From: Escherichia phage LMessi | Direction: 5' to 3' (one strand) | DNA: 37,205 bases | Sequence record: PP925823.1 | Part shown: one piece after another, positions 34,625-36,991 of the stretch | Layout: each line of letters opens with the position of its first letter | Numbering within the stretch: position 1 is the first letter of the stretch | The notes under the pieces: generated by a model | The model's database searches: none | What the model was told of the DNA's origin: nothing | The model's input: the letters and a program-made list of their open reading frames with translations, nothing else | Program-made: the position numbers and the translations under genes

Positions 34625-34977
34625 TACGTGCTCCAGTGAGACGCAGGATCGAGCGGGTAGCCGTTGGCATCACAGCCTATTACCGCGCCGCTCTTCTCCA
34701 TTCTCTGTTTCGTTGAGTCGTGATGCGCTTTGCACAGTGGCTGCCAGTTCTCTTTACTCCAGAACAGGAGCTGTGCTTTCGATATGGCCAGCGCGTTACC
34801 TGACTTAAGCGCATCTTTGAGTTTGTGGGGCTCAATATGGTCAACCACCGTTGCTGGGGTAATGCGCCCCTGCTGCTCGCACATCACACATAGTGGGTGC
34901 TGCTGCAGGAAACGCAGACGGGCCTTATCCCATCGGCTGCCATATACGCGGGGCTCTTTGTTCATGCCAGTCTCCAT
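34624..34977 (-). CDS. HNH endonuclease (packaging-associated)
   Basis: CVMC...VVDHIEPHK...QPLCKAHH: Cys pairs plus the His-Asn-His-type core; sits next to the terminase genes as in HK97-like cos phages. Confidence 0.75.
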   Translation of the reverse strand: METGMNKEPRVYGSRWDKARLRFLQQHPLCVMCEQQGRITPATVVDHIEPHKLKDALKSGNALAISKAQLLFWSKENWQPLCKAHHDSTKQRMEKSGAVIGCDANGYPLDPASHWST

Positions 34978-35552
34978 GCGCGGCGGCGTTCCGTCCTCGG
35001 CTCGTTGTCAGGGTGACGCTCAACCGTCGGGAGGTCAGCGTGATCCACCAGCGAGTAACACGGATAAATAACCCGGCCACCGAATGCCTCACCAACGGCG
35101 TAATCAGCTGCCAGCGTTTTATTCCATGCGTTAAGCATGCGCGCCAGCCTGCCCTGAGGAGGGCTGTAACATACGCCGTGAATCAGTTTGCTAAGAACAA
35201 GGTAATCAGCGTTTACTCTGTCTGATTCAACCAGCATTCCGGCAATCTCTTTCTGATACTGCGGCGGTCGGCCGGTACCGAGGTAAAAGCTCAGCATCTC
35301 TTCAGGGAAGCGCACCAGCCATTCAGTTACCTTATCGGTGAAGCCCTGCACAGGAAGCGCGTCGTCTTCCAACACCACTACCCTGCAGGGTTGGCATGCA
35401 GCCCACTCCAGCGCGCGGCGATGATTCCAGTTCGCGCCGTGGTCACCGTCATCAATAAGCAGATGAGCATCCAGCAGCGCGGCAAGTCGTTGCGCATGAC
35501 CTATGCGAGAGTGATGGCCAACCACAACAAACTTCACTTGTGTTTCCACCAT
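34962..35552 (-). CDS. GT-A-fold glycosyltransferase-like protein (GT25-like) candidate
   Basis: 196 aa; N-terminal beta-strand/DG segment (KFVVVGHH...IDDGDHG) and VVVLEDDALP acidic motif suggestive of nucleotide-sugar transferases. Confidence 0.35.
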   Translation of the reverse strand: MVETQVKFVVVGHHSRIGHAQRLAALLDAHLLIDDGDHGANWNHRRALEWAACQPCRVVVLEDDALPVQGFTDKVTEWLVRFPEEMLSFYLGTGRPPQYQKEIAGMLVESDRVNADYLVLSKLIHGVCYSPPQGRLARMLNAWNKTLAADYAVGEAFGGRVIYPCYSLVDHADLPTVERHPDNEPRTERRRAWRLA

Positions 35553-36991
35553 GCGGCCTCCTTACCGATACCATCAGTTTTGAAAACGGTATGTACCAGA
35601 GGGCCGGTGACCAGCCTGTCAGCGAATGAATGCGCGACAATACCGAACGCCAGCATGTCACCCACCGCGGCGCCAACCTGTTCTTTCTTCCAGAAACGAT
35701 AACTCTCGATCCGGTAGTAAAGACGGATGATGCCGTGAGCGAACGCCATTACATCAGCGCGGGTGCCACCCAGCAGACCAGCGTTAAGCATCACATCGCC
35801 GCGGTGCGCTTCAATGAATTCCTGATAGATACGCTCAGGATGATTCTGTTTCGCCCAGGTGTCGGCGTATGTCTTCGGTTCAGAACCGACGTAAACATTC
35901 CCGGGCTGCATTTCTTCCCACGGTGCGCGGAGCATTTCGACATCGGTACCATCTGTACACCAGACGAAACGATATTCAGGGTGATCGCGCAGGTGCTGCC
36001 AGATGTGCAGCCAGCGCCGGAAATAGACATTCATCTTTACGTCAGGTACGAGATACAGCTCAACATCTGCCGGGGCCGTCAGTAATTCATCCACCAGCGC
36101 AATACGCCCACAATTCCGAAGCGAGGCCGCCCACTTGGTCAGCATGTCAGGCGAGGCCATCATTTTCGTACCGCGTTGAGGGTCAGGCTGGCTGGTCAGT
36201 AACGTAGTGATAACCACGTCGCGCTGACGCCGATATTCAACATAACCGGTAAAGCCGGTATCACGTCGTTCATTGTGGATCTTAACATTACGTTCCACCA
36301 GCGCCTGGCGGTCGGGCCTCGGTACCGAACGCTCCACCGCTTCATGCTCATCGAGGGAATGAATCAGCTTGTCTGAACCGAGGACATCAGCGTAAGCCCA
36401 CGTAGTCAGTCCAGCGTTATGGATGCGCAAGGCGAGGTCGCTGTGCTCGTACATGCCGCGACCATAAACCGGATCGAATCCGCCCACCCTCTCGATGGCG
36501 CTACGGTGGTAATACAGCATCACGCCGCGCTGTCCGGTGTACGCCACATGCTGATCGTCACGGTAAAGCACCGAAAGGTCATTCAGCTTATTGCGACCAG
36601 CCAAATCGAGAAACTGGTAAGCCAGGTGTGGCTCGGGTGATTCGATGTAGGGAAGATGCCAGTTGTCGGCGATGGGCCAGGCATCATCATCCCACAGAAA
36701 AAGATGCTCGCACCCGGCATCCATCAGGGCTGACAGGCTGGCGTTCTTCGAAGCAACAATGCCGAGTGAAGTTTCATGGCGAAGCAGCTGCACGCCGTGG
36801 GGAACTACCGCTGCAGGTTTTGAACCATCATCTACAACCACCACTCGCGCGCCAGCGGGAAGATGCTTCATGTGCTGTTCGAGTGCACGTTTTAAAACGT
36901 CTGAGCGCTGATGCGTCGAAATGGCAACGCCGATCCGCGATGAAATTGCACAGGCGGGTGCATACTGGACACCATTAATAGTGACCTGCAT
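35534..36991 (-). CDS. glycosyltransferase family 2-like protein with an additional C-terminal domain
   Basis: 485 aa; VVVVDDGS and WDDDAW motifs typical of GT2 (GT-A) enzymes within the first 110 residues; C-terminal 250 aa unassigned. Confidence 0.5.
   Translation of the reverse strand: MQVTINGVQYAPACAISSRIGVAISTHQRSDVLKRALEQHMKHLPAGARVVVVDDGSKPAAVVPHGVQLLRHETSLGIVASKNASLSALMDAGCEHLFLWDDDAWPIADNWHLPYIESPEPHLAYQFLDLAGRNKLNDLSVLYRDDQHVAYTGQRGVMLYYHRSAIERVGGFDPVYGRGMYEHSDLALRIHNAGLTTWAYADVLGSDKLIHSLDEHEAVERSVPRPDRQALVERNVKIHNERRDTGFTGYVEYRRQRDVVITTLLTSQPDPQRGTKMMASPDMLTKWAASLRNCGRIALVDELLTAPADVELYLVPDVKMNVYFRRWLHIWQHLRDHPEYRFVWCTDGTDVEMLRAPWEEMQPGNVYVGSEPKTYADTWAKQNHPERIYQEFIEAHRGDVMLNAGLLGGTRADVMAFAHGIIRLYYRIESYRFWKKEQVGAAVGDMLAFGIVAHSFADRLVTGPLVHTVFKTDGIGKEAAWWKHK

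Follow-up and report, generated by a model that had tools for sequence, protein, structure and literature searches.

The genome of Escherichia phage LMessi carries two glycosyltransferase-like genes on the minus strand, with the HNH endonuclease and terminase (TerS, TerL) genes downstream on the same strand. We analyzed the whole 37,205-nucleotide stretch of its sequence record PP925823.1 (the window). It represents an HK97-like (Hendrixvirinae) temperate phage genome in circularly permuted form, since a GGAGG in its last bases (37195–37205) serves the ATG at position 1. The two genes encode proteins of 485 and 196 residues, here called GT485 and GT196. They are co-directional and overlap by 19 nucleotides, in agreement with a first-pass annotation of this DNA that had described such a pair upstream of the HNH and terminase genes. 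We propose that the pair carries out late cytoplasmic O-glycosylation of virion proteins at a C-terminal serine, a reading drawn from sequence comparison to which we assign a probability of about two in three. The virus particle would then probably be sugar-coated. The two proteins and the domains of GT485 lie as follows.

35534–36991, minus strand: GT485, two-domain glycosyltransferase-like protein of 485 residues in the list of open reading frames (phrog_1579 'glycosyltransferase', E = 6e-252, full length)
36230–36940, minus strand: predicted N-terminal GT-A (GT2-like) domain of GT485, residues ~18–254, with DDGS (54–57) and DDD (101–103)
35537–36229, minus strand: C-terminal domain of GT485, residues ~255–485, with conserved motifs and an unassigned fold
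34962–35552, minus strand: GT196, minimal GT-A glycosyltransferase of 196 residues (phrog_854, E = 6.5e-73, full length)

GT196 and probably GT485 are GT-A-type proteins

The three motifs quoted in the first-pass annotation are all present: GT485 has VVVVDDGS at residue 50 and WDDDAW at residue 100, and GT196 has VVVLEDDALP at residue 58. Its assignment of the proteins to the GT-A type is supported by fold for GT196 and by family membership for both. GT196 has a GT-A fold with a DxD-type metal/nucleotide-sugar motif. It is homologous to two mycobacteriophage proteins, Che8 gp110 (34% identity, BLASTP E = 4e-25, residues 10–194 of 196) and Corndog gp38 (33% identity, E = 1.6e-19), which a passage of PMC12363180 describes as essential glycosyltransferases for capsid glycosylation. 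A statement in PMC12619734 places Mycobacterium phage glycans at the C-termini of capsid and tail-tube subunits. A PDB profile search with GT196 returned Mimivirus R655 only, at a non-significant E of 0.17, and the sequences of GT485 and GT196 found nothing meaningful in the PDB. A 649-residue protein with a GT196-like C-terminus (P0296) was tested as a GT485–GT196 fusion and is not one.

The N-terminal domain of GT485 is matched by phrog_2456 over residues 18–254 (E = 2.7e-55). The Pfam family Glycos_transf_2 (PF00535) reaches residues 22–109 only, with E = 7e-4 and 20.1 bits against a gathering score of 23.3. A few close homologs have a precomputed PF00535 match and are named 'glycosyltransferase family 2 protein' by NCBI, and NCBIfam MftF and EpsD match GT485 in part. 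Residues D54, D55, D101 and D103 are invariant in an alignment of enterobacterial, Klebsiella jumbo-phage and mycobacteriophage homologs.

The large C-terminal domain noted in the first-pass annotation is real. It contains the aligned motifs TxLLT..DPQR, YFxRW, DGTDV, NAGxxGGxR and GDM and a terminal HK. Pfam gave no match for the isolated domain from four diverse homologs, and a PDB profile search was likewise blank. The domain was also considered as a duplicate of GT196, and this was rejected because hhalign shows no relation to the GT196 family. An AF2 model of GT485 from a shallow alignment (81–93% identity) was poor (pLDDT 47), with an alternating beta/alpha pattern in the C-terminal domain. 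All Foldseek matches to this poor model were GT-A enzymes; the top matches were two-domain enzymes aligned over more than 400 columns at TM scores of about 0.2. The C-terminal domain may be a second nucleotide-sugar transferase domain.

The pair recurs in enterobacterial phages and in mycobacteriophages

HK97-like phages and prophages from Enterobacter, Citrobacter, Klebsiella, Cronobacter and E. coli repeatedly have the pair in the same place; phages Fostie, mEp390, HK542, ENT39118 and ECP1 are examples. Prophages of Enterobacter, Citrobacter, Klebsiella, Cronobacter and Salmonella are rich in both families. At 90% identity the homologs form more than 860 clusters for GT485 and more than 1,800 for GT196, and both open reading frames are genuine genes. 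The first-pass annotation held that lambdoid phages do not normally carry glycosyltransferases here. This stands to the extent that HK97 and HK022 lack both genes, HK633 has GT196 alone, and most of the pair is present in only 2 of 5,426 complete E. coli genomes; it does not fit the recurrence of the pair at this position in HK97-like phages and prophages. The rarity that it implied was overstated, because PHROGs and RefSeq already list both families.

In a tblastn search of the phage collection, Mycobacterium phages made up 662 of the 718 records with a GT196 homolog and 568 of the 608 with a GT485 homolog. GT485 is 43–47% identical over its full length to the mycobacteriophage glycosyltransferases Che9c gp82, Sparky gp88 and Fruitloop gp99. 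The Klebsiella jumbo phage Centimanus has a GT485 homolog 55% identical to it, and there too the pair is adjacent. The gene order in Che9c is that of the window: gp82 (GT485-like), gp83 (GT196-like), the HNH gene gp84 and the genome end. The glycosyltransferase genes of Che8, Sparky and QueenHazel likewise lie just before an HNH gene at the right end of the genome, which in the circular form places them beside the terminase. Che9c gp83, used as a single locus query, returned only three linear phage genomes, with no structural genes in range.

The arrangement varies between phages. In Corndog, three glycosyltransferase genes, gp36–38 (locus L186, 1–1528), lie directly upstream of the capsid gene gp41 (L186, 2548–3780) and not at the genome end; what the enzymes are tied to is thus the structural genes and not a place beside HNH and cos in itself. 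In mEp390 the two genes are separated by an extra HNH homing-type endonuclease gene (L002, 1296–1808), annotated as similar to Corndog gp56, and the pair therefore tolerates splitting. QueenHazel has a gene annotated as a serine/threonine kinase (L179, 46520–46993) between its GT485-like and GT196-like genes.

Four virion proteins of the window end in Gly-Ser

A Gly-Ser C-terminus occurs in exactly 4 of the 52 called genes of the window (binomial P = 1.9e-4 against an empirical background of 4/743), and all four encode virion proteins. No other open reading frame of at least 50 codons, in any frame of the window, ends in Gly-Ser.

29093–30250, minus strand: major capsid protein of HK97 gp5 type, 385 residues (phrog_10, E = 1.7e-88), ending ...IIKGSFSSGS; predicted acceptor
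28733–29059, minus strand: Ad1 head-tail adaptor of HK97 gp6 type, 108 residues (phrog_40, E = 8.7e-25), ending ...SEPEEGS; predicted acceptor
27081–27551, minus strand: major tail (tube) protein, 156 residues (phrog_158, E = 1e-40), ending ...KRIYASGS; predicted acceptor
13468–14853, minus strand: side tail fibre, 461 residues (phrog_1591 'tail fiber', E = 2.8e-138), ending ...DNNSGS; possible fourth acceptor

The side tail fibre is the least supported of these putative acceptors. Homologs from phages that lack the glycosyltransferases end differently. The Ad1 homolog of one such phage (L019) ends ...EEEP, and capsid homologs end ...IKGTFPAPTK or ...IKGTF(A). Because the more distant capsid homologs stop at ...IKGTF(A), the SSGS of the LMessi capsid looks like a short appended tail.

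Serine-ended virion proteins co-vary with the glycosyltransferases

We asked whether such ends go with the glycosyltransferases in other phages. In IMG/VR loci anchored on TerL, Gly-Ser ends were found on 36 of 146 downstream genes in glycosyltransferase-carrying loci versus 1 of 114 in those lacking the enzymes. Another 78 enterobacterial loci, many of them close relatives, were anchored on GT196 and gave 182 of 909 downstream genes versus 3 of 629 upstream. These annotation-free counts are conservative, because the greedy gene caller missed some genes, for example Che8 gp11 and the ENT39118 tail tube.

The enzymes occur with differing structural modules. Capsids of 385, 386 and 402–403 residues, only 36–46% identical, accompany them, with TerL proteins only 26–31% identical. 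At least four tail-tube alleles in glycosyltransferase-carrying phages (156, 147, 150 and 151 residues) end in Gly-Ser. Nearly all these capsids and tail tubes share the final Gly-Ser while the residues before it vary (SS, ES, GA, AA; AS, ES, DP, EP, TP, QQ, VA). With the last 15 alignment columns left out, a capsid tree contains two separate glycosyltransferase-carrying, Gly-Ser-ended clades, each with a neighbor that lacks the enzymes and is not Gly-Ser-ended. Beside the clade ending SGS stand L019 and L020, which end ...APTK; beside the clade ending GAGS stands L073, which ends ...TAGK.

The same holds for actinobacterial phages and the prophage loci L171–L175. The list below gives the last residues of capsid and tail-tube proteins; for the prophage loci these genes were assigned by synteny, not annotation.

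Che8, glycosyltransferase present: capsid TGS (...KTGS), tail tube DGS (...SDGS)
Che9c, present: capsid TAS, tail tube DGS
QueenHazel, present: capsid TAS, tail tube DGS
Sparky, present: capsid GGS, tail tube GGS
Corndog, present: capsid VGS, probable tail tube (gp49) GDS
Mycobacterium prophage L172, present: capsid GGS, tail tube not seen
L171, present: capsid AGS, tail tube not seen
Nocardia prophage L173, present: capsid NAS, tail tube TGS
Nocardia prophage L175, present: capsid VTS, tail tube SAS
D29, absent by tblastn: capsid GEG, tail tube GGA
BPs, absent by tblastn: capsid AVA, tail tube IAA

The common feature is a C-terminal serine after a small residue, glycine more often than alanine or threonine. 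Counted by hand as lineages of capsids and tail tubes, 17 of 18 linked to glycosyltransferases are serine-ended versus 2 of 11 lacking them (Fisher P = 5e-5). Virion glycosylation is the function we favor, because homology to mycobacteriophage enzymes, the same genomic position and this co-variation converge on it. It was one of three roles offered, with no preference among them, in the first-pass annotation; the other two, DNA glycosylation and conversion of host surface glycans, are disfavored on grounds given with the operon below.

Several points weigh against glycosylation of virion proteins. HK97 and HK022 lack the glycosyltransferases, yet their capsid and adaptor still end in Gly-Ser, so the tail is not strictly dependent on the enzymes. 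The capsid FSSGS and Ad1 SEEGS ends are kept in HK97 (L086, 4028–5545), HK022 (L185, 4028–5545) and HK633 (L183, 4031–5548), and the tail tubes of HK97 and HK022 end ...TLTIS and ...VVTP. Conversely, one glycosyltransferase-carrying phage (L017 and L111, the same IMG/VR contig) has an HK97-type, 234-residue Ig-domain tail tube ending ...CTLTVN; the tail tube is therefore not always a candidate substrate. Lineages were tallied by hand, and the counts are independent only in part. On the enzyme side, the window's GT196 reaches no Pfam model, GT485 has no homolog among the other glycosyltransferases of Che8, its structure model is unusable, and half of it is without an assigned fold. The exact attachment residue is taken from secondary statements, and for enterobacterial phages the substrate is deduced from sequence. 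The head genes of HK97 and HK022 share 95% identity or more with those of glycosyltransferase-carrying phages, so these two phages may reasonably be taken to have lost the enzymes as a module in recent times while keeping the tails. The Gly-Ser ends of HK97, HK022 and HK633 may be vestigial acceptor tails.

The retention of Gly-Ser tails in HK97 and HK022 could also mean that serine ends are an inherited trait of the structural module, unrelated to enzymes that glycosylate something else, such as a host protein or small molecule in takeover or anti-defence. The unassigned second domain of GT485 would fit such a role, as would the PHROGs category of both families, 'moron, auxiliary metabolic gene and host takeover'. 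We consider this unlikely. Serine ends recur with the glycosyltransferases in unrelated capsid and tail-tube families of phages from two bacterial phyla and are absent from sister lineages that lack the enzymes, a co-variation that shared ancestry of the structural module does not explain.

The pair lies in the late operon

The neighbors of the pair and the integrase gene are these.

34624–34977, minus strand: HNH endonuclease, HK97 gp74-type (Pfam HNH, E = 2e-5; phrog_2323, E = 3.5e-53)
33743–34228, minus strand: TerS (phrog_5601, E = 1e-80)
32222–33736, minus strand: TerL
1691–2077 and 1423–1704, minus strand: holins, late genes
794–1423, minus strand: endolysin, late gene
517–861, minus strand: Rz-like spanin, late gene
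11483–12730: integrase, ~22 kb from the glycosyltransferase pair

The late genes on the minus strand run in the order holins, endolysin, spanin, the window junction, GT485, GT196, HNH, a 78-residue open reading frame, the cos region, TerS, TerL, portal, protease, major capsid protein and tail genes. A GGAGG ribosome-binding site precedes the GT196 ATG. GT196 overlaps the HNH gene, which is translationally coupled to it (through ATGA, should HNH start at its second ATG), and the HNH gene in turn overlaps the next one by stop and start codon. GT196 is thereby tied into the late operon ahead of HNH, TerS and TerL, a position that suggests late expression. The HNH protein is a positional neighbor outside the glycosylation chemistry. 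A consensus scan found no sigma-70-like promoter around the glycosyltransferase genes, and terminator-like sites were at chance level with none convincing; Rfam had no match across 34200–37205.

This setting bears on the possibility that the enzymes act at the cytoplasmic side on a host envelope glycan, such as lipopolysaccharide (LPS) core or O-antigen precursors, and so bring about superinfection exclusion or lysogenic conversion. The GT2 and GT25 families are generally best known for LPS and polysaccharide synthesis. The Pfam model Glyco_transf_25 ('LPS biosynthesis protein') matches 13 of 51 members of the GT196 family (best E = 8.6e-8), the window protein not among them, and the NCBIfam matches of GT485 to exopolysaccharide enzymes are weak. 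Late-region morons expressed from the prophage are known in HK97-like phages, several being annotated in the HK97 record. The window pair is differently placed: it has no promoter or convincing terminator of its own in the consensus scan, and its genes overlap their late-operon neighbors. Neither protein has a membrane segment (maximum 19-residue hydropathy 1.51 for GT485 and 0.75 for GT196). The pair does not have the make-up of a Gtr-type cassette of membrane proteins expressed from the prophage; partners of GtrA, GtrB or GtrC type are absent and int/att is not nearby. A role in host glycans would also leave the serine-ended virion proteins unexplained, and homologs adjoin capsid genes in phages of mycobacteria, whose envelope differs entirely. 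The lack of membrane segments and of an own promoter in the scan, together with translational coupling inside the late operon, makes conversion of host glycans improbable.

Phage glycosyltransferases are classically DNA-modifying, and the pair adjoins the packaging genes. The enzymes could then protect phage DNA against restriction, as in T-even and other phages with hypermodified DNA. To our knowledge, DNA glycosylation requires a hydroxymethylated base, and there is no base-hydroxymethylation gene among the annotated genes of the window, whose small open reading frames were only partly scanned. The closest characterized homologs act on virion proteins. Although diverse viral DNA glycosyltransferases have recently been described (Pyle et al. 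2024), we regard this function as highly improbable for the LMessi pair.

Several further features of the window were recorded. Directly upstream of GT485, ~112 nucleotides (36990–37101) are 94–96% identical to unannotated DNA in many E. coli chromosomes without the glycosyltransferase genes and may be mosaic boundary sequence. The spanin gene and GT485 are separated by a reverse-oriented open reading frame of unknown function (1–378, plus strand; phrog_12178). Nine consecutive G (34329–34337, minus strand) are found in the non-coding cos region between the 78-residue open reading frame and TerS. The early region has ordinary lambdoid content, with a Q-like antiterminator, primase/helicase, DnaD-like loader, CI-like repressor and integrase. 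A tellurite-resistance-like gene (2338–2763, minus strand; phrog_632) lies between the Q-like antiterminator and the holins. Within 7632–9453, a full-length CI-like repressor gene (7632–8366, plus strand) is followed by two open reading frames, of which 8569–9000 resembles a separate helix-turn-helix regulator and 9061–9453 the C-terminal part of a CI-like protein; GC content there is low (38–43% over 8001–10000).

A model for glycosylation at C-terminal serines

The analysis shows homology, the GT-A fold of GT196, the place of the pair in the operon and the co-variation of serine-ended tails with the enzymes; the acceptor site, the division of labor between the enzymes, the sugar and the benefit to the phage are our inferences. 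In our model of virion glycosylation, two soluble enzymes would be made late in infection by the operon that also encodes the packaging and structural proteins. Drawing on host nucleotide-sugars, they would build an O-linked glycan on the C-terminal serine of newly made virion proteins that are abundant, namely the major capsid protein, the Ad1 adaptor and the tail tube, and possibly on that of the side tail fibre. GT196 is the predicted priming enzyme, since no other component is shared by all of the Che8, Corndog, Che9c and HK633 versions; it would recognize an exposed end consisting of a small residue and a serine carboxylate and add the first sugar. GT485 would then extend the glycan, perhaps by two kinds of sugar should the second domain be catalytic as well. 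If mycobacteriophages are a guide, such a coat would alter recognition of the particle, for example by antibodies.

A broader form of this model is tentative, and we lean slightly against it. The system could be portable, with GT196 reading a C-terminal small residue and serine (typically Gly-Ser-COOH) on any exposed virion protein, in Gram-negative and actinobacterial phages alike, and with the HK97 capsid tag vestigial. If so, the HK97 tag might be re-activated by supplying the two genes in trans.

The gene families are already named in PHROGs and RefSeq, and the function of the homologs is known experimentally in mycobacteriophages. Virion glycans of mycobacteriophages are reportedly O-linked and shield virions from antibodies, and there is said to be little evidence for virion glycosylation in the wider phage population. 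The literature searched held no report of it in enterobacterial or HK97-like phages. Virion glycosylation in enterobacterial HK97-like phages, and a C-terminal Gly-Ser rule tying enzymes to likely substrates across two phyla, appear to be unreported in the literature searched, which did not include the primary Che8 paper. If the model is correct, temperate phages of gut Enterobacteriaceae include glycan-coated virions, which would bear on antibody recognition and phage therapy. HK97 is the best-studied phage capsid model, and capsids close to it would be natural glycoproteins in many relatives. The Gly-Ser rule would be a cheap sequence predictor of glycosylated phage proteins and possibly a minimal, two-residue glycosylation tag for the E. 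coli cytoplasm. Phages already in collections (mEp390, HK542, HK633 and ECP1) allow the prediction to be tested, with HK97 as a natural control lacking the enzymes.

Comparison with known glycosylation systems

At the level of fold, GT196 resembles A197 of the archaeal virus STIV, another minimal GT-A protein (PDB 2c0n), with 9% identity and no detectable sequence homology. The Glyco_transf_25 model of CAZy family GT25, which includes the LgtB-type LPS galactosyltransferases, ColGalT1 and Mimivirus R655, does not match the window's GT196.

The O-antigen glucosylation cassettes of Shigella and Salmonella phages (GtrA/GtrB/GtrC) probably share GT2-type chemistry in temperate enterobacterial phages with the LMessi pair. 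The Gtr proteins reside in the membrane, their genes adjoin int/att, and the lysogen expresses them. In contrast, the window proteins have no predicted membrane segment and are encoded in the late operon, ~22 kb from the integrase gene.

The pairs of Cluster I mycobacteriophages and relatives (Che9c gp82–gp83, Sparky gp88–gp89, QueenHazel gp70 and gp72) belong to the two families seen in the window and have its gene order, with HNH and the genome end after them. We know of no experimental test of this cassette variant. The proteins are 43–47% (GT485) and 34–35% (GT196) identical to those of the window. Between the two genes, QueenHazel has the additional kinase-annotated gene and mEp390 the extra HNH gene.

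The systems of Che8 (gp108–110) and Corndog (gp36–38), described for mycobacteriophages in Freeman et al. 2023 (Cell Host Microbe 31:1216), are like that of the window in three respects. Che8 gp110 and Corndog gp38 match GT196 over its full length; the glycosyltransferase genes lie beside HNH/terminase or capsid genes; and capsids and tail tubes end in a small residue and serine (TGS and DGS in Che8, VGS and GDS in Corndog). They differ in that the LMessi phage is lambdoid and HK97-like, infects a Gram-negative enterobacterium and would carry a glycan that is a prediction. The partner enzyme differs as well: GT485, tested as a counterpart of Che8 gp108 and gp109, is homologous to neither. Finally, the window carries the Gly-Ser tail on two further proteins, the Ad1 adaptor and the tail fibre.

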